64,000 bases of DNA, taken from Bdellovibrionota bacterium FG-1. Its GTDB lineage: Bacteria; Bdellovibrionota; UBA1018. Under the pieces are notes generated by a model. It was not told where the DNA came from and ran no database searches. It was given only the letters and a program-made list of their open reading frames with translations. The position numbers and the translations under genes are program-made. Positions 52,988 to 64,000 of the stretch are shown here, piece after piece (the first letter of the stretch is position 1; the number at the start of each line of letters is the position of its first letter). The stretch spans positions 50,040 to 114,039 of the forward strand of contig JBBCAW010000062.1 in the NCBI GenBank assembly GCA_051382295.1, written 5' to 3'.

Positions 52988-53821
52988 TTAGAGGAGTTTG
53001 AGAGCGGCCATTGGAGCCGAGTTGGCCTGAGACAACACTGAGATACCCGCGCTTTGGAGAATATTGCCGCGGACCATTTCCGAAGTCTCAGTTGCGATAT
53101 CCGCATCAGCGATGCGTGACCGCGCTTGAGTCAAGTTCTCTTTGGCGACTCCCAAGTTATTGATCGTAGAATGTAATTTGTTTTGCATCGCACCCAAACC
53201 GGCACGAGTACTAAACACCTTACCCATCGCCTCATCGACTTTATCAAGGGCGTCTTTGGCACCATCGATCGTCGTGTAATCCAAGTTATCGATTCCGATC
53301 GAAGCGGATCGAACATCATTTTCACCAGCATTGAACTGGATCCGATCGGCATCATTATTTCGAATACCCACTTGGATATCCAGCACTGCTTTTTCTGATT
53401 GACCATTCAACAGATTCGTTCCGTTGTAGTTAGTGCTGTTAGAGATACGATCGACTTCTTCCACAAGGCTTTGCACTTCTTTATGGATGTAGCCGCGTTC
53501 TTTTTCACCCACCGTATCAGAAGCCGCTTGCACGCCCAGCTCTCGCATACGGATCAGCATATTGCCAATTTCAGTCAAGCCACCTTCAGCAACCTGCGCA
53601 AAGCTGACGCCGTCGTTGGCATTGCGTTCCGCTTGCCCCATGGACCGAATCTGACTCCGTAAGTTTTCACTGATCGATAAGCCGGCCGCATCGTCACCGG
53701 CTTCGGTGATACGTTGACCTGAGGCCAAACGTTGATAGACCTTCTTCTGATCATCGCTCGAGTGAGATAATGCGCGATTAGCAGCAAGAGCAGCCATATT
53801 CGTAGATATTCTTAAGCCCAT
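52988..53821 (-). CDS. fliC: Flagellin (277 aa)
   Basis: MGLRISTN, RLASGQRI, DDAAGL, LGAMQNKL, SRIADAD. Confidence 0.97.
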   Translation of the reverse strand: MGLRISTNMAALAANRALSHSSDDQKKVYQRLASGQRITEAGDDAAGLSISENLRSQIRSMGQAERNANDGVSFAQVAEGGLTEIGNMLIRMRELGVQAASDTVGEKERGYIHKEVQSLVEEVDRISNSTNYNGTNLLNGQSEKAVLDIQVGIRNNDADRIQFNAGENDVRSASIGIDNLDYTTIDGAKDALDKVDEAMGKVFSTRAGLGAMQNKLHSTINNLGVAKENLTQARSRIADADIATETSEMVRGNILQSAGISVLSQANSAPMAALKLL

Positions 53822-54098
53822 AACATTCCCTTTCGTTTGAACGAGTCTCCCCATTCTCATGATAACGCAGTGCGTCATCTCAAGGATAAGAAAACCCTGT
53901 TAAGTTCCTTCCTCGCGTTATTACGAAGTCGGACCGAGGTTAAGCTTCAAACGTCTGGAATATTCTGCGACAGATGCCAAGAGCTACAGCGAACAGTCGG
54001 CAGACGCTTTACGACAGATTGACTTCGCGTTTGGTGCCACGAGATCAACCTTTGCTTAGTTTGTATTCAGGAGTTCTTTGTTCCTGCTTACAACTAGC

Positions 54099-54125
54099 AT
54101 ATCGGTGCGCTGCGTTATTACTTGA
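54099..54125 (-). promoter_or_regulatory. Sigma28 promoter of flagellin
   Basis: TCAA-N15-ACCGATAT. Confidence 0.65.
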
Positions 54126-54309
54126 GCAAAACAGGCAATCTTAACAATTGCCAGTAGGTCGCATCCGCTTGGACTGTAAAAGTCCTTAGGTAGCAACCAC
54201 TTAAAAGTTATTTATTTTTAGCCTTGGAGTTTGCTGTACCCAAGGAATTCTAGCGAACACACCCTTTTCAACTCACACCGGCCCATGCACAGTTTCCTGT
54301 TTTTGGAAG

Positions 54310-54345
54310 CTGGGGGAAGAGACTGTCCTAGTCCCCGCCCCCAGT
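54310..54345 (-). terminator. Hairpin after the upstream flagellin
   Basis: CTGGGGGCGGGGACT...AGTCTCTTCCCCCAG on the minus strand. Confidence 0.55.
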
Positions 54346-54381
54346 GGTGTTTTTGCTACTGCGTATGAGGTACCAAAACGA

Positions 54382-55215
54382 TCAGCCGAGCAGTTTAAGC
54401 GCCAGCATGCTGTTCTGGTTAGCTTGACTGAGGACTGCCGTGTTGGCTTGAGTGAGGATATTACTCTTAGTCAACTCGGACGTCTCAGCAGCCATGTCAA
54501 CGTCCTTAATACGGCTACGGGCGCTAGCCAAGTTTTCGTTATAGATCTGTAAGCTGTTGATGCTGGATCCTAAACGATTTTGCAAGGCGCCGAGCTCTGC
54601 GCGGTTTCCGCTCAGGCTCTGGATAGCAGTATCAATCTTTTCAAGGTTCTCTTGAGCAGACTGTTTATTGACCACATTGATCCCTTCCAAACCCAACCGA
54701 TCTGCCGAGACGTTGGTTTTAGCAACATCAAAGGTAAACCTGTCCTGGTCTGGATGATTGTTTTGGCCGATTTGAATATCAATGGCTTCACCTTCACCAT
54801 TGAGCAGCTTCTTGCCGTTGAACTCAGTAGCAGCGGCAATACGATTCACTTCTTGATGAAGCTGTTGAACTTCCTTATCCATAAATCCTCGCTCAACATC
54901 GGTGATAGTATCCGATGCTGCTTGGATCGATAGTTCGCGGAAACGAACTAAGATATTGGAAATTTCATTCATTCCACCTTCAGCAGTCTGAATCATCGAA
55001 ATACCGTCGTTGGCATTTCGAATGTCCTGGCCGATGGACCGAATGGACGCGCGCATCTTTTCACTGATGGCTAATCCAGCGGCATCGTCCGCGGCGCGGT
55101 TAATGCGTGCACCAGAGGCCAATTTTTCAAGTGACCCCTTTTGTGCGTCGTTATTTACACCCAAGTTACGTTGGGCAGCCAACGACTGAACGTTGGTTGC
55201 AATTCTTAAACCCAT
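54382..55215 (-). CDS. fliC: Flagellin (277 aa)
   Basis: MGLRIATN, SGARINRAADDAAGLAISE, LGALQNRL; GGGAGG RBS before ATG 55215. Confidence 0.97.
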   Translation of the reverse strand: MGLRIATNVQSLAAQRNLGVNNDAQKGSLEKLASGARINRAADDAAGLAISEKMRASIRSIGQDIRNANDGISMIQTAEGGMNEISNILVRFRELSIQAASDTITDVERGFMDKEVQQLHQEVNRIAAATEFNGKKLLNGEGEAIDIQIGQNNHPDQDRFTFDVAKTNVSADRLGLEGINVVNKQSAQENLEKIDTAIQSLSGNRAELGALQNRLGSSINSLQIYNENLASARSRIKDVDMAAETSELTKSNILTQANTAVLSQANQNSMLALKLLG

Positions 55216-55385
55216 ACCGACCTCCCTTAAATCGACAACCTCAGCCGGTGAGCAAAAGTAGACAAAGCTACCCCTGCGCCGATGAGACGCCTTTCCTGTT
55301 TCAGTTTGTGGCAGGAATTTGCTGTACCCCTGCCGAAGACCAGTTCTTGGAACCCATCCAAGACCCAATCTCCTTTCAATGAATC

Positions 55386-55414
55386 TGATCGGTCAGGTAT
55401 TTAAGAACCTTTAG
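55386..55414 (-). promoter_or_regulatory. Sigma28 promoter of flagellin
   Basis: TAAAG-N15-ACCGATCA. Confidence 0.65.
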
Positions 55415-55477
55415 ACTTTTTTAATCAGGTATTGCATTCAGGCAAAACTTTAAAGCCGCACCGCATTATCTATTTAT

Positions 55478-56413
55478 TTATACAGCAGAAATTAAATCAG
55501 CGGCTTTATAAGGGTCCAACTTTCGATCGATTACTTGCTGAAGAACCTCTTTTCCAGAGCTGGTTTCAAAAGCAATCATCACAGAATGGCTGAGCCGTTC
55601 ATTCAAGATATCGGAAATTTCATTTTTGAGAAATTCTCGGGTCTTGAGTTGTCGGGCACCGCTCTGAGTGAGAAACACTTGGTGGGATTGAACCGCCTCA
55701 AGCAATTCAGTCATGCCAAGATCGCGGACCGCCTCCGCTCGAATGACAGGAATTATCCAGCTTTCTTGGTCATGAGGATTCAGAGCCACCATGTTAACAA
55801 GATCCTGGATCATCCGCTCAGACTCTGGACGATCACACTTATTAACCGCAAAAACATCCGCAATTTCCATAAGCCCGGCCTTCATCACTTGAATGGAATC
55901 GCCGCTTTCGGGCACCAACAATACAATGACGGTTTGAGCCAGTCGCAATACCTCTAGCTCAGTTTGCCCTACCCCAGCCGTCTCCACCAATATGACATCA
56001 AAACCGGCAGCATCCAGAAGCAGCACCACCTCTTTAGTGGCATGGGATAAACCGCCATGCTTGCCGCGAGTTCCTAGGGAGCGAATATAAACACCTTCGT
56101 CTCCCGCATGCTGTTGCATACGAATCCGGTCACCTAGAATCGCCCCTCCCGAAAAGGGACTCGAGGGATCAACCGCCACAATAGCCACCCGTTTGCCTTG
56201 ACGACGAAGATGAATGGTCAAACGATCGACCGCCGTCGACTTTCCAGCCCCGGGAGGGCCTGTAATCCCCCAAATTTGGGCCTTACCCGTTAACGGATAA
56301 ACCTCAGTCATGATCTCCGAGACTCCTTCATCCCGATTTTCAACCTTTGAAATTAAACGAGCCAACGCGAGGCGATGTCCCGTCAACATATCCTGGACCA
56401 ATTTTTGAGGCAT
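55478..56413 (-). CDS. meaB: Methylmalonyl-CoA mutase-associated GTPase MeaB
   Basis: GITGPPGAGKS, VDPSSPFSGGAILGDRIRM, ETAGVGQ, NKCD. Confidence 0.95.
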   Translation of the reverse strand: MPQKLVQDMLTGHRLALARLISKVENRDEGVSEIMTEVYPLTGKAQIWGITGPPGAGKSTAVDRLTIHLRRQGKRVAIVAVDPSSPFSGGAILGDRIRMQQHAGDEGVYIRSLGTRGKHGGLSHATKEVVLLLDAAGFDVILVETAGVGQTELEVLRLAQTVIVLLVPESGDSIQVMKAGLMEIADVFAVNKCDRPESERMIQDLVNMVALNPHDQESWIIPVIRAEAVRDLGMTELLEAVQSHQVFLTQSGARQLKTREFLKNEISDILNERLSHSVMIAFETSSGKEVLQQVIDRKLDPYKAADLISAV

Positions 56414-56448
56414 GATCTGAGAAGTCTTACCCAGAATTGGGTAAAAAA

Positions 56449-56475
56449 TAAAGGGTAGCCGAGGCATGCCGATAA
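56449..56475 (+). promoter_or_regulatory. Consensus sigma28 promoter
   Basis: TAAA-N15-GCCGATAA, exact consensus. Confidence 0.8.
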
Positions 56476-57814: not shown

Positions 57815-58129
57815 ATGCCCAATCTCAATCGCGAAATGATGTTGAACTCTCTTGAGCGCCTGGATCAACTCATCCCCAAAGACGTCACACTCATTGTGGG
57901 AGGCGGCGGCGCCGTGATCCTCGCCCACGGCCTCGCACTAGCAACCACCGATATCGACGCCGTACCGCGGGGCATGGCCCTCTCAGAGCTAGACCCTTTT
58001 ATTAAGCAAGTTGCACACGAACTCTCTCTTGCTCCGGATTGGCTGAATCCCTATTACTCGACTTTCACACACACGTTACCCTCGGATTATGGCGACCGAC
58101 TCGATTTTTTGGATGACATCCAAGGATGA
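57815..58129 (+). pseudogene. DUF6036-like nucleotidyltransferase, apparently internally deleted
   Basis: VGGGGA...TTDID, DWLN, LPSDYGDRL, then ends about 70 aa shorter than the paralog at 14935. Confidence 0.6.
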
Positions 58130-58842
58130 AGGGACTCATTCAAATCCCGAGTGAGCAAGATTTACTTGGCGCATACGAAAAACTTCAATTTCAAAAAGCG
58201 CCCATCTTTTCAGGAGAACTCATTCTCTGGAGCCAATGGTCCCGATTTGACCCTCGCCTTGCGGAACAATTAATCAGCTATTTTAAAAAGGAATGGAAAA
58301 CCTTACTCCCTACGGATCTCAACGCCCATCTCCTTAAGACGGCCTGGCCTGCCGCCTTAGGAGTCCTTCTATCTCATCTGCAGGAATTTGGTGAATTTCA
58401 GAAAAAAGACGAGGCCCTGTTTTCAAATTGGGCAAATTGCGTGATGACGGATATCCCCTGTGCAAAACACGAACAATTTTTTATCGGTCTTCGCTCTTTA
58501 GGTGGCAAGCTCATGCGAGAAGATGCCGAGCAATCCATAAAACCCTATAATAAATGGGGTTATTTGGGGCGGGAAGTTCTCATCAATAAGGCTTCACAAA
58601 ACATTTCGACCTTAAATTCAAAAAAAACGTGGATTCCACGCAGGGCTCGCCTAGCCGTTCTCGACGGCCTCTTAGAAAACCGCAGCCGCATTACGGTTCG
58701 CGAATATCGTGAGAAATTACATCACTCTGTATCGCTACGACAGGCGGAAATGGATCTAAAAGAAAACCCCCGACTAAAGCCCTTTGGAAATACACGGGCT
58801 CGGCATTATTTGGTTAAAAAAGAACGGAAAAAAAAGGTTTAG
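58126..58842 (+). CDS. Hypothetical partner protein with C-terminal winged HTH
   Basis: ATGA-coupled; ITVREYR...SLRQAEMDL...GNTRARHY. Confidence 0.7.
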   Translation: MKGLIQIPSEQDLLGAYEKLQFQKAPIFSGELILWSQWSRFDPRLAEQLISYFKKEWKTLLPTDLNAHLLKTAWPAALGVLLSHLQEFGEFQKKDEALFSNWANCVMTDIPCAKHEQFFIGLRSLGGKLMREDAEQSIKPYNKWGYLGREVLINKASQNISTLNSKKTWIPRRARLAVLDGLLENRSRITVREYREKLHHSVSLRQAEMDLKENPRLKPFGNTRARHYLVKKERKKKV

Positions 58843-59766: not shown

Positions 59767-61482
59767 GTGCTTTTAAAGAACAAAAAAAACACCTTGTTTC
59801 AATTCCGGGCCACAGTTGCGTTGCTCTTGGGAGTCATTGTCCTTGGAGCGAGTCCTTCGCGCGCTCAGGCCGCAGACTTGCCGCAAGAACGCAATTTCTA
59901 TGATGTTTTAGAAGACGTCATGGGTGATTTTGAGTTTGACCTCAAAAATGGAAATGTAACTGGACTTCGAGACGTCTCCGTCCGCAACGTCGCGGTGAGT
60001 GAGAATGTCCCCACTTCATTCAAAAGCCATTTGGAACTTCTCATTTCGGAAAAAATCCTCAAAAACACCAAATCCAAGGTCATTCAGTGCCTTCCGTGTA
60101 AGGCCAGAAAAACCACCTTAAACGGAGAACAAGTTGTCATCACCTCTCCGGAAACAAACCCAGCAGAACTCTCAAGAATTGCAAAATCGAGTGGCATTGA
60201 GCACTTTATAGATGTTGCCTTTACCTATCAGCCGTCAGGAATGGTGCTCTCGATGACCATTATTGAGCCTGAAACCGGCTCCATAGTATGGTCGCGCAGC
60301 TACAACTCAGAAACGACCCATGCCGCAGCCTTTCGACGCGGAGTGGATTACTCACAGACCGACGATGCCAGAAAGTCAGCCGAGTATACCCCGACTATGC
60401 AATACCGAGGTACGGCCTATTACCTTTTTGAACCTAACATGGGTGGGATGAGCGGATGTCTGGGGCTTGGGTTCCGGATGGTAGAACGGTACGATAACCG
60501 CCGCAAAGAGGTCGGTTTCGAATTCAATTACCTCAAGGATGTGTCAACTCTCACGGGCGGAAGCTCCGCCACGGCCGCAGCAGATGCAACGGATAATATT
60601 TTTGGAGGCATCAATGCAACCGTCCTTTTTGTGCATGGCTGGAATTTTATTGGGGATGAAGAGAACTTCAATAAGGTCAGGTCCAACTTGACCATAACCA
60701 CCTTAAACGGAGAACAAGTTGTCATCACCTCTCCGGAAACAAACCCAGCAGAACTCTCAAGAATTGCAAAATCGAGTGGCATTGAGCACTTTATAGATGT
60801 TGCCTTTACCTATCAGCCGTCAGGAATGGTGCTCTCGATGACCATTATTGAGCCTGAAACCGGCTCCATAGTATGGTCGCGCAGCTACAACTCAGAAACG
60901 ACCCATGCCGCAGCCTTTCGACGCGGAGTGGATTACTCACAGACCGACGATGCCAGAAAGTCAGCCGAGTATACCCCGACTATGCAATACCGAGGTACGG
61001 CCTATTACCTTTTTGAACCTAACATGGGTGGGATGAGCGGATGTCTGGGGCTTGGGTTCCGGATGGTAGAACGGTACGATAACCGCCGCAAAGAGGTCGG
61101 TTTCGAATTCAATTACCTCAAGGATGTGTCAACTCTCACGGGCGGAAGCTCCGCCACGGCCGCAGCAGATGCAACGGATAATATTTTTGGAGGCATCAAT
61201 GCAACCGTCCTTTTTGTGCATGGCTGGAATTTTATTGGGGATGAAGAGAACTTCAATAAGGTCAGGTCCAACTTGACCATGGGATTAGGCGGCACCTACT
61301 CTTCCGGATTTTTAGGAGGCTTGATTAGGGCCTCTTGGGAATGGCGCTTAGGAAAGCACTTTTCGATTTCAGCCGTAGCCGGTTATCGCCCTTCCGCTAT
61401 GGCTTACGTAGGAACTGCGGTTTCGACCGGAAAAAGCGTGGGTGGCGCTGAATTTGGAGTGGGCATCAGTTTACTGAAATAA
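59767..61482 (+). CDS. Exported protein: alpha/beta periplasmic domain plus probable outer-membrane beta-barrel, with a 195-aa internal duplication
   Basis: Signal peptide ending AQA; alternating beta-strand pattern in the C-terminal part. Confidence 0.75.
   Translation: MLLKNKKNTLFQFRATVALLLGVIVLGASPSRAQAADLPQERNFYDVLEDVMGDFEFDLKNGNVTGLRDVSVRNVAVSENVPTSFKSHLELLISEKILKNTKSKVIQCLPCKARKTTLNGEQVVITSPETNPAELSRIAKSSGIEHFIDVAFTYQPSGMVLSMTIIEPETGSIVWSRSYNSETTHAAAFRRGVDYSQTDDARKSAEYTPTMQYRGTAYYLFEPNMGGMSGCLGLGFRMVERYDNRRKEVGFEFNYLKDVSTLTGGSSATAAADATDNIFGGINATVLFVHGWNFIGDEENFNKVRSNLTITTLNGEQVVITSPETNPAELSRIAKSSGIEHFIDVAFTYQPSGMVLSMTIIEPETGSIVWSRSYNSETTHAAAFRRGVDYSQTDDARKSAEYTPTMQYRGTAYYLFEPNMGGMSGCLGLGFRMVERYDNRRKEVGFEFNYLKDVSTLTGGSSATAAADATDNIFGGINATVLFVHGWNFIGDEENFNKVRSNLTMGLGGTYSSGFLGGLIRASWEWRLGKHFSISAVAGYRPSAMAYVGTAVSTGKSVGGAEFGVGISLLK
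60111..61280 (+). repeat. 585-bp tandem duplication (60111-60695 and 60696-61280)
   Basis: No differences seen by eye; in frame. Confidence 0.95.
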
Positions 61483-61495
61483 AGGAAAGGATCCA

Positions 61496-62248
61496 GTGAT
61501 AGGGGTTTTAAAACACATCAAAATGATTGGAATTGCAGGACTGCTGGTTGTATTTACCTCAAGCGGATGCAGCACCATGCGTTCTGCCATGGGCTTAGAA
61601 ACCAAGCCCCAAGCCAATGGCCCGATCAACAACCCCTTTGGAGAAAGCTTTTCGAACAAAGCTGAACGACCTCAAAGCGTGATCTTAAGAACAAAAAAAG
61701 GTGACCGTGCGGTTGAGGTTGAGATTCCAGGCGGCACCGCCCAATTGACCGATCTCACCATTCCACTTTCTCCAGCCTTTCAAGATGGCACGGCGCGCGC
61801 TCCAGCGGGGGAAATGGATACTTTGACATCGCCCTATAAGCCCAAGCCACCCACGGCAGCCGATCGCGAAATCACGCGCGCTTTTCCCCAAACTTCCGCT
61901 GAAAATGAAAACACTCGCCGAGACATCGAACAGGAACTAGGCGTCACTCCCGCTGAAGACTCGACTCCTGAAGCAACTGAAAGCTATCTGGGCGCTCTGG
62001 ATTACCTAAAGAGCCTTTATCGAGCTGGAAGATACGAAGCCGCGCTCGTGGAAACCGATGCATTGATCCGACAGTATCCTACGGCCCCCCGGCTCCACCA
62101 AATGCGGGGGACACTGCTCGATCGCATTGGGCAAACTGACCTCGCTCTCAAAAGCTGGAAACAGGCCCTACAATTTGAACCAGGCAATACGCCACTGCGT
62201 AAATTTATTGAAAACCGTGAACACAAGAGGAGCTTAGCCTCACCATGA
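61496..62248 (+). CDS. TPR lipoprotein
   Basis: Signal ending SSGC; C-terminal TPRs. Confidence 0.8.
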   Translation: MIGVLKHIKMIGIAGLLVVFTSSGCSTMRSAMGLETKPQANGPINNPFGESFSNKAERPQSVILRTKKGDRAVEVEIPGGTAQLTDLTIPLSPAFQDGTARAPAGEMDTLTSPYKPKPPTAADREITRAFPQTSAENENTRRDIEQELGVTPAEDSTPEATESYLGALDYLKSLYRAGRYEAALVETDALIRQYPTAPRLHQMRGTLLDRIGQTDLALKSWKQALQFEPGNTPLRKFIENREHKRSLASP

Positions 62249-64000
62249 AAAAGCCCCTCACACTCGTCAATCTTTCTTTTGCACTGACTCTTGCGACCCT
62301 GGGATTATCGACAAGCTCCTCCGCCGGGAACAACGCCAAATACAGCGCAGTGGAGACGGTCCAAAAAAACACTGAAGCGCAGGTCAGACGACTGGTTGAG
62401 CCGATCTTGGATAAATATTGCCAAGAAAGCTGCAAACTCCTTTCAGTGAACACCATCGTCGATATGGCCACCCCGGATGAAGTGGCCCCGGGTTTTGATG
62501 AAGTCGAAGGCACGTCAAAGGCCGCGGAGCTTGCGCCGAGTTCGGCCCGTGTCAAGCTATTGATCGATGACAAAGTCGGTCCGATCTCGCGCCAAAAACT
62601 CACGGAACTCGTACAACAATTTTTAGATACGCTGGATTTTCCGGTTAAAATCGACACTCAGTTGGCCCACTTCCCCCAGCCAGTCGGAGCTGAAAGTCGT
62701 GTTGTTGAACTCAGGGATAAAATCATCCGACAGTTCCGTGGAACCATGGACGAACTGTTTAAACAGTTTTGTCCCGAACAGTGCTTGCTTGCGGATTTTA
62801 ACATCGTGACCGAAACGGTGAATCCCGAAGAGGCCCAGTATGGGAAGCCCGGCGAATTCATTCAAGACTCCGGCGTGGCCCTCAAAATAAAGAACATTAC
62901 GGGCACGATCCTTGTGGACGAGGCCCTCCCCCCCGTCGAACGCAATAATATCGTTGAAATGGCCAAGCTCAAAGCCAATGCCTACCGAAATGTGGATCTC
63001 GTTGGAAAAACTCTCAAATTCCCCCACCCTGATCTCATGGTCAACTCCCAAGGACTCGCAGTCGCTCGCGGGCCCCGTAATGGGTCGACTTCTGAGAAAG
63101 AAAAAAACGAGAACCGTTCCTTAGCTTCAACCAGCGACTCTAAAGAAGCCAAGACGATCACCAACGAATCCCTTCAAAAGACAACGGCCACCAATTCCAA
63201 TCAAAACTCAGAAAATAACCTACGTCAGGAAAGATTTGAGCGAATTGAAAAGATTGAGCGAGTCGAGAGTGGCGATGCGGTGCAAGTTGAACTACAAAAG
63301 TTCAAGGTTTTTGGGCTGATTTTCGCTTGTGCGGTGATTTCTTTGCTCATTTTCTTAGCCATGGCGAGCTATCGGCCCCGAGGCGGGAGCGGGGGCGACT
63401 CCTCACCCATCACCCGAATCATCCAAAACATCACTCAGGATCCCACGGGTGGGATGTCCGGCCCGGCTACCTTGGGCCCCCCCTCGGCCAGCGAACATCG
63501 CGGGTTAGTGGCCCTGCGCTTTGAGATTGAACGCCTGACTGAAGAACTCACCGCGGTCTTTGCCCAGCATCCCAAAGTGGCCAAACAGGTGTTTAGCCGA
63601 GTGCTTACCGAAGAGGGCGTCGAAACGACCTCGCAATACATTCAGATCTTTGGCGAATCCATCGTGATGGATATGCTTCGCGACCCCTCTTTGCAGAGCG
63701 ACCTGGCCGAACTCATGGAGTTTTACGCTAAAAACCCATCCGAGCTGAAAGACGAAGAGAAACTCGATCTTCTGCGCAAGCTTCACAATCGCACGATCGC
63801 GGGCAAGCTGCTCGTCATGGGCAATCGCTCCTCCAACCTCTTTGACTTCTTGGCCGAAATGGATGGCCTCCAAATTCTCGAACTCGTGCGCAACGAATCC
63901 CTTACGGTAAAATCAATCGTATTGACCCAGGTGGATCCGCAAAAACGGGCGGCCATCTACTCCCAACTGGACGAAGAAACCCGAATGCAGCTCTTAAGCG
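62245..64000 (+). CDS. FliF-like/FliG-like fusion membrane protein (partial, runs off right edge; absent from ORF track)
   Basis: Manual translation is open for 585 codons: signal peptide, two CxxxC periplasmic repeats, one TM, then FDFLAEMDGLQILELVRNESLTVKSIVLTQVDP resembling the FliG middle domain. Confidence 0.8.
   Translation, partial: MKKPLTLVNLSFALTLATLGLSTSSSAGNNAKYSAVETVQKNTEAQVRRLVEPILDKYCQESCKLLSVNTIVDMATPDEVAPGFDEVEGTSKAAELAPSSARVKLLIDDKVGPISRQKLTELVQQFLDTLDFPVKIDTQLAHFPQPVGAESRVVELRDKIIRQFRGTMDELFKQFCPEQCLLADFNIVTETVNPEEAQYGKPGEFIQDSGVALKIKNITGTILVDEALPPVERNNIVEMAKLKANAYRNVDLVGKTLKFPHPDLMVNSQGLAVARGPRNGSTSEKEKNENRSLASTSDSKEAKTITNESLQKTTATNSNQNSENNLRQERFERIEKIERVESGDAVQVELQKFKVFGLIFACAVISLLIFLAMASYRPRGGSGGDSSPITRIIQNITQDPTGGMSGPATLGPPSASEHRGLVALRFEIERLTEELTAVFAQHPKVAKQVFSRVLTEEGVETTSQYIQIFGESIVMDMLRDPSLQSDLAELMEFYAKNPSELKDEEKLDLLRKLHNRTIAGKLLVMGNRSSNLFDFLAEMDGLQILELVRNESLTVKSIVLTQVDPQKRAAIYSQLDEETRMQLLS

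Follow-up and report, generated by a model that had tools for sequence, protein, structure and literature searches.

The window, the 64,000-nucleotide stretch of DNA analysed here, comes from contig C62 of the Bdellovibrionota bacterium FG-1 genome (G000; C-numbers denote its contigs). At its 3' end, on the forward strand, lies a gene for a single-chain protein that joins a FliF-RBM3-like part, a transmembrane (TM) helix and a FliG-like part (62245..64000). We call it the rotor gene, and in relatives it is followed by its own motA and motB. The open reading frame (ORF) is read for 585 codons until C62 (114,039 bp) ends, leaving the first 585 aa of a protein that in relatives is full-length at about 800 aa. 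An earlier note on this DNA had the gene truncated by the window edge; it is indeed incomplete at its 3' end, but the contig itself stops there. The ORF start at 62245 overlaps the stop codon of an upstream TPR lipoprotein gene (ATGA).

The protein opens with a likely cleavable signal peptide, read by eye from the sequence (aa 1 to about 27; 62245..62325), which is followed by two periplasmic units of the ring-building (RBM) type. Unit 1 (62338..62682) is arranged as helix-strand-insert-strand-helix-strand, has an invariant CxxxC plus a PG(F) motif, and contains VRRLVEPILDKYCQESC (62383-62433) and SARVKLLIDD (62542-62571). Unit 2 (62683..63033), an internal duplicate of unit 1 with its own invariant CxxxC, contains MDELFKQFCPEQC (62746-62784) and ITGTILVDE (62896-62922). 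A low-complexity periplasmic linker of Ser, Asn, Thr and Glu (63034..63279), with variable alignment columns and predicted disorder, leads to the single TM helix (aa 355-374; 63307..63366); the equivalent stretch in the model of a full-length relative, P0002, has a pLDDT below 50. The helix is the sole hydropathy peak above 1.6 in the window protein, starting at aa 355. On the cytoplasmic side, a region that is helical in the model (63490..63828), with ELTAVFAQHPKVAKQVFSRVL at 63544-63606, leads into FliG-N-like helices, and the start of a FliG middle domain follows (63871..63993). All the motifs quoted in the earlier note lie within the ORF, and hydropathy bears out the single TM helix that it described.

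The two periplasmic units, called similar from the letters alone, are a genuine internal repeat (hhalign probability 96.6%, E 6e-10): with a profile built from unit 1, unit 2 reaches 27.3 bits and the best of 200 shuffles 9.8. In a model of the periplasmic part with both units (pLDDT 89.6), the insert between strands 1 and 2 is present as in the RBM3/S-ring fold, but it is much shorter than that of FliF. The best fold match of this model among 48,161 chains is the FliF S-ring 8Z5V (Z 11.2, rmsd 2.8, 96 aa), and FliF RBM3/S-ring entries hold ranks 1-3 (Z 11.2, 10.4 and 10.2). Their margin over the next matches, unrelated OsmC (Z 8.9), EscJ (8.1) and SpoIIIAG (7.2), is modest, and the best fold rows for unit 2 alone are generic (Z at most 8.4). 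At the sequence level, a profile comparison with this genome's FliF was non-significant, though it aligned at the first RBM3 helix; the FliF_C clusters in an Atlas search came no higher than 0.85 and 0.76, a lead only. The window protein has no N-terminal TM helix and no RBM1 or RBM2, PF01514 is absent from P0002, and PF01514 in this genome matches contig C1 only. What stands of the FliF likeness first proposed is the RBM3/S-ring fold, with the top three structure matches; it extends to RBM3 only, and the sequence similarity is non-significant. The periplasmic domains are predicted to fold like the S-ring domain of FliF.

The cytoplasmic part is homologous to FliG. Pfam FliG_M matches the window protein at aa 543-583, just under the cut-off (E 1e-4), and in full-length relatives, including P0002, FliG_M and FliG_C are both above the Pfam cut-off. 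P0002 scores 51 bits against the FliG equivalog TIGR00207, below its curated cut-off of 226.7, and PDB sequence matches to FliG reach E 7e-11. The HMMER alignment to FliG begins at FliG residue 63, the C-terminal half aligns gap-free by sequence to the M and C domains of T. maritima FliG, and the GG-like hinge of FliG reads PG in the fused proteins. In a Foldseek search with the full-length model of P0002 (mean pLDDT 77.7, pTM 0.37), the first ten ranks are all FliG structures, among them full-length FliG 3HJL (E 8e-8 over 321 columns), and FliF comes eleventh (7BK0, E 1e-4). In a quick tree the fused FliG domains group with a support of 76, with one long branch inside, and their monophyly relative to canonical FliG is not established. 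FliG is defined as a soluble cytoplasmic protein encoded in a basal-body operon, and the window protein has a signal peptide and a TM helix; it falls outside FliG and FliF as these are defined, yet it likely works like their pair.

The EHPQ motif of the FliG middle domain reads ESLT in the window gene (63895-63906), as had been noticed at the outset, and it is replaced throughout the relatives examined: by E(S/N)xT in 84/84 aligned close relatives, with EHPQ absent from all 52 rows of a wider alignment. This loss is consistent with the absence of FliM. Torque positions were taken from the alignment to T. maritima FliG; the torque charges of E. coli FliG we take to be K264, R281, D288, D289 and R297 (E. 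coli numbering). Equivalents of K264, D288 and D289 are kept in 83, 83 and 82 of the 84 close relatives, respectively, and the D289-equivalent is acidic in 49 of the 52 wider rows. The R297-equivalent is shifted by one residue in close relatives.

The operon and its stator

We compared 77 rotor loci from a genome collection, 68 of them with at least 2.2 kb of downstream sequence and 59 with as much upstream. Both motA and motB lie within 2.2 kb downstream of the rotor gene in 67 of the 68, a gene for a cyclic nucleotide (cNMP)-binding protein directly follows it in 59/68, and genes for a secreted (outer-membrane-type) protein and a TPR lipoprotein precede it in 59/59. The earlier note could not see the motA/motB pair, which emerged on inspection of the downstream genes in relatives. 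Basal-body genes were found neither near the window gene nor among the recurrent neighbour families of the 77 loci, which upholds its placement outside a flagellar basal-body operon. Two 3' ends of the rotor gene are present in the FG-1 assembly, one at the start of C123 and one at the end of C147. The C123 end is followed by genes for a cNMP-binding protein, MotA, MotB and a zinc-ribbon protein, and because of its synteny with relatives such as L033 we assign it, as the presumed missing end, to the window copy.

The operon MotA has a MotA_ExbB domain, and its best-scoring models and structures are those of flagellar stators (MotA/PomA/MotP). The operon MotB has plug and OmpA domains and a TM aspartate motif, W-x-x-S-Y-A-D. 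In a quick tree, the operon MotAs branch apart from both canonical groups. A canonical stator is encoded outside the operon in 76 of 78 genomes checked, which means that swimming does not depend on the stator of the operon. The operon MotAB had been suspected of being the only stator in 29 of the 78; TIGR03818 above cut-off ruled this out in 27, and the genomes without a canonical stator outside the operon are G247 (400 contigs) and G085.

The two conserved genes upstream of the rotor gene both lie in the window, on the forward strand. The TPR protein (61496..62248; TPR_2/TPR_14) has a lipobox-like SSGC. The secreted protein (59767..61482) likely combines an alpha/beta domain with an outer-membrane beta-barrel; it has no Pfam match and no PDB sequence match at the thresholds used, and its Atlas look-alikes, LpoB/CsgG/TolB_N and OMP_b-brl, are a lead only. 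Its gene contains an exact 585-bp in-frame tandem duplication (60111-60695 = 60696-61280), which is probably an assembly artefact: the protein is 571 aa long as assembled and 376 aa without the duplication, and its relatives have 366-414 aa.

Distribution and relation to the flagellum

A protein search returned 247 relatives, of which the best 120 are mostly 720-840 aa long and nearly all carry FliG_M and FliG_C; source names of the relatives, where given, are mostly Bdellovibrionota or Oligoflexia. Of 70 genomes sampled from the order, 53 gave a match to the two-domain form, nearly always with an intact frame, and the alignment of 84 sequences has a mean column identity of 53% and dozens of invariant residues, including the unit Cys. 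A mixed-alignment search returned 2 proteins. One-domain relatives of 550-700 aa occur across the phylum, the distant ones being 13-21% identical, and motA lies inside the fetched region for 29 of 40 loci of one-domain relatives. A Myxococcales-type subfamily of 58 proteins, two of them named Myxococcales, is homologous to the window family over 508 columns (probability 97.7%). Its gene order is secreted protein, TPR, motA, motB and rotor, with motB preceding the rotor in all 14 loci that have enough upstream sequence (23 fetched). Some genomes carry several divergent rotor copies.

Large ORFs (at least 900 aa) are present in 21 of 40 distant loci, and in a scan of 12 large proteins, FN3, Ig, FG-GAP, Kelch or lectin domains turned up in 10. 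Two loci, L114:766-3039 (from G085) and L157:2432-4674 (Myxococcales-type), add a TIGR04565-type barrel and a helical or TPR-like protein of 526-551 aa; the barrel is above cut-off in the G085 locus and a weak match in L157.

The genomes that carry the operon mostly encode a flagellum as well: among the 78 checked, FliF was found in 76 and flagellin in 77. In FG-1, a canonical fliF and an EHPQ-bearing fliG stand in a basal-body cluster on C1, where the earlier note had asked for them elsewhere in the genome, and the window gene is thereby ruled out as the only fliG. Genome G085 (2.2 Mb, 91% complete, 380 contigs) carries the five-gene operon, and in this one 91%-complete genome FliF, flagellin, FlhA, rod/hook and FliM/N were all without a match. 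Mis-binning of its operon contig is not supported, as the composition fits the genome (0.96, with 101 other loci at most 0.85). In quick trees, the rotor of G085 falls within the group of the window's subfamily (support 94), and the MotA of G085 joins those of the Myxococcales type (support 96). A search for more aflagellate carriers with an alignment in 24 genomes was empty and missed even the known-positive G085, hence it is uninformative. Sigma-28-like promoters (at most 2 mismatches) were found for 17/54 operons, 8/54 shuffled sequences and 21/42 flagellin controls.

A likely counterpart exists in B. bacteriovorus HD100, where the available part of PMC3627812 lists the hypothetical gene Bd3014 (577 aa), Bd3016-Bd3019, motB (Bd3020) and motA (Bd3021), with sizes, in order, of 577, 325, 194, 302, 205, 319 and 293 aa. 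These sizes and their order match our clusters L107 and L113, and the Bd3020 primer corresponds to a peptide found in 5 operon-type MotBs and in 0/60 canonical-stator loci. Because of this agreement, motAB2 (Bd3021/Bd3020), published as a flagellar stator, likely belongs to the fused-rotor system, and Bd3014, annotated as hypothetical and without a hit in the literature searched, is likely the orthologue of the rotor in the one-domain form. Compared with the window, the B. bacteriovorus cluster has one RBM unit, no Cys pair and different barrel partners. Six of the seven cluster genes were scored silent in attack and growth phase, with Bd3014 at 4/5 reads per kilobase per million (RPKM); Bd3019 is expressed in growth phase, and motA3 is attack-phase-specific at an RPKM of 332 (PMC3627812, from the rows available of Table S2). 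According to the accessible text of a preprint, motAB2 is absent from most epibiotic relatives and motAB3 is present in all strains (10.1101/2025.02.19.638989). A 2026 review, in its available sections, describes the gliding machinery of B. bacteriovorus as unidentified (PMC13104615), and another, also available in part, points to Agl/Glt-like operons.

A candidate one-piece rotor and competing explanations

We consider it probable that the gene encodes a non-switching, MotAB-driven one-piece ring rotor of an ion-driven machine separate from the flagellum. The dedicated MotA/MotB pair is the main support for a separate machine, beside the domain order, the FliG homology, the operon linkage, the loss of EHPQ and a canonical rotor and stator encoded separately in the carrier genomes. 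In such a machine, the RBM units would assemble copies of the protein into an inner-membrane ring, and the Cys pairs may form disulfides. MotB would be anchored to peptidoglycan through its OmpA domain, and MotA5B2 would turn the FliG-like ring one way, without FliM/FliN/CheY switching. The periplasmic face could then pass torque via the TPR lipoprotein to the outer-membrane protein, with the cNMP-binding protein, encoded between rotor and motA, acting as a putative regulator. The large FN3/Ig/FG-GAP proteins beside many distant loci suggest that the output is to move or deliver a surface adhesin, with surface motility or attachment to prey as its purpose; this assignment is tentative and somewhat unlikely. 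The wider proposition is that Bdellovibrionota and some Myxococcota have minimal five-gene rotary motors, which keep the stator-rotor gear of the flagellum (no export gate, switch or filament) and in which a FliF/FliG ring of single-chain subunits drives adhesin machinery of the outer membrane. It has in our judgement slightly less than an even chance.

To our knowledge, torque coupled through FliG is known only from the flagellum. If the wider proposition holds, FliG gearing would for the first time be found in a motor other than the flagellum. That motor would be what B. bacteriovorus motAB2 truly serves and a candidate for an unassigned engine of surface motility or prey attachment, and one of three published motAB pairs would be reinterpreted. 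A rotor that occurs naturally as one chain and has a stator of its own would present the motor core as a stand-alone module, which bears on flagellum evolution, and would offer a five-gene rotary motor to study, with a likely orthologue in the genetically tractable B. bacteriovorus. The novelty is the system; its parts belong to known families.

With the flagellar FliF/FliG rotor and its MotA5B2 or PomA5B2 stator, the window family shares an RBM3/S-ring-like fold, a TM helix, the FliG N-part, M and C domains, the acidic torque-helix pair, a flagellar-type MotA and a MotB with plug and OmpA domains. Unlike that core, it is one polypeptide with a signal peptide instead of an N-terminal TM helix, has one or two short Cys-pair RBM units without RBM1/RBM2, has lost EHPQ and has altered R281/R90 charges; its operon is without FliM/N, export gate, rod, hook or filament genes and has extra outer-membrane partners. 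An engineered FliF-FliG fusion has reportedly been made in Salmonella. The engineered Vibrio fusion, as described in the available text, forms MS rings, with FliM/FliN seemingly needed for a stable ring (PMC10941966); it was built from full canonical flagellar genes, whereas the window system appears to do without FliM/FliN. The only natural FliF-FliG fusion that we found in print is the Chlamydiaceae protein, which is likewise a FliF-like/FliG-like single chain in a non-flagellar context. In the sections available, it has about 330 aa, two TM helices and an RBM2-type domain, is tied to the injectisome (Bergeron 2016, PMC4768692), and has no SpoIIIAG-like RBM3 and only a FliG-M-like tail, whereas the window family combines RBM3-type units with both FliG-M and FliG-C and is linked to a stator. 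Bacteroidota GldLM/T9SS and Myxococcus AglRQS/Glt are alike as ion-driven motors of the 5:2 type coupled to the outer membrane (PMC13104615, available sections); these gliding motors have no FliG and no RBM ring, the window-family stator is of the flagellar MotAB type, and the analogy is one of working only. In its accessible part, a survey of how MotAB evolved does not mention a system of this kind (PMC12505986), and our literature search, with subscription journals and bioRxiv supplements outside its coverage, found no description of a fused rotor with motAB.

Several observations weigh against a separate rotor. The RBM fold is common, with unrelated OsmC proteins reaching Z 8.9, and large adhesin-like ORFs occur in only 5/77 loci of the window's subfamily. 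On the rotor, the R281-equivalent is Glu or Asp in 84/84 close relatives, with Lys or Arg one residue before in 81. On the stator, MotA of the window's subfamily is without the R90/E98 rotor-contact motif: the R90-equivalent is Arg in 0/68 of this subfamily and in 30/30 of the canonical group; a Lys-Lys lies three to four residues before it in the window's subfamily, and distant operon MotAs have Arg there in 27/29 and 13/13, with E98 lost. We looked for a charge swap that would compensate (R to E on the rotor, E to K/R on the stator) and did not find one; at the stator site the residue is mostly Asn. Both rotor and stator have thus departed from the canonical interface, which fits a dedicated pair but puts torque production in some doubt, and the ring, its rotation and its contacts are themselves what we infer.

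These altered charges, together with R281 and R297 positions that vary freely in distant subfamilies, would suit a non-rotating energiser or sensor, in which MotAB conducts ions and acts, much as in Ton/Tol, on the FliG-like domain, which serves as lever or scaffold. Its output would be export or cargo release at the outer-membrane barrel, or a report of surface contact to the cNMP-binding protein. Partners such as the TPR lipoprotein and the barrel are reminiscent of transport systems of the envelope, and the cNMP gene in 59/68 loci points the same way. We hold such an energiser to be unlikely, if the best of the competing explanations: a complete FliG M plus C module and an S-ring-type domain are retained, the stator is flagellar-type with a plug and an OmpA anchor rather than ExbD/TolR-like, and D289 equivalents are conserved, as are R90 equivalents in distant groups.

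An accessory role is improbable too and ranks next: in special conditions, the protein and its MotAB pair would serve the ordinary flagellum, whether as an alternative rotor ring, as a stator reservoir or as a clutch. In its favour, carriers are nearly all flagellated, the 53 genomes with the two-domain form all having flagellin and 52 of them FliF, and flagellin genes are often nearby (25/42 of the loci whose upstream sequence reaches 8 kb). Morehouse 2011 states in its title that each of the three motAB pairs of B. bacteriovorus contributes to flagellar motility. For motAB2, such a contribution is published, motA2/motB2 change strongly in fliL mutants (PMC11323537, accessible part), and the engineered Vibrio fusion shows that a FliF-FliG chain can form MS rings (PMC10941966). 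Against an accessory role, G085 has the operon without flagellar gene matches; this aflagellate case rests on one fragmented genome, and the query used matched none of the other 8 genomes in its family. The protein lacks the RBM1/RBM2 and the N-terminal TM helix that could house an export gate, no row retains EHPQ, canonical rotor and stators coexist, and some genomes hold several divergent copies. The B. bacteriovorus cluster is also silent in swimming cells, but so is the canonical-motif motA1, and silence alone is not diagnostic (PMC3627812, available part). That the gene is a decaying relic of a second flagellar system without present function is very improbable: canonical motifs are lost, expression is low in the two phases tested and occurrence is patchy (53/70 genomes of the order), but nearly every match has an intact frame, columns are on average 53% identical and gene order is fixed across lineages.

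Copies, paralogues and neighbouring genes in FG-1

A second copy of the window gene, 92% identical in amino acids, ends contig C55. The C62 and C55 copies break at the same place, and a middle piece of about 140 residues is missing from the assembly. Locus L178 (C55:33218-36715) holds this second copy of the first three operon genes, with the two upstream genes only 42-56% identical; set against the 92% of the rotor, this suggests that the rotor alone was recently duplicated or gene-converted. The rotor 3' end on C147 (L173) is followed by a zinc-ribbon/SH3 gene, without motAB.

A distant one-domain paralogue lies on contig C107. Its locus (L177, C107:2020-8098) also has a TPR lipoprotein gene and a barrel-like gene and faces a gene for a 977-aa Ig-repeat protein; no motAB lies beside it on this 13-kb contig. 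Two further clusters, L174:7175-11608 on C55 and L176:269-7999 on C116, each contain a barrel-like gene, a gene for a protein of about 550 aa, motB, a short motA and a TPR lipoprotein-like gene, and the C116 cluster also holds an FN3/lectin protein. The roughly 550-aa proteins have a signal peptide/TM and match no rotor profile; they may be a very divergent branch. Seven motA-like genes with an adjacent motB occur in this genome (on C33, C54, C116 and C123, and three on C55), of which only two are of canonical flagellar types. Two stand-alone FliG_C-only proteins of about 148 aa are encoded at C141:13758-14201 and C86:9212-9661, one of the genes directly following an HD-GYP-like gene.

Two flagellin-like ORFs lie 7-9 kb upstream of the window gene on the opposite strand. 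Together with meaB they make up a block (52988-56467) that is conserved upstream in many relatives and inverted in some. Between this block and the operon, at 57815-58842, a short DUF6036 nucleotidyltransferase-like ORF (104 aa, perhaps frameshifted) overlaps a 238-aa partner, a pair that presumably resembles those of the toxin-antitoxin or abortive-infection type. Elsewhere in the collection, the operon of one genome is closely preceded by another motA-motB pair, which is divergent (L094:4225-4956).

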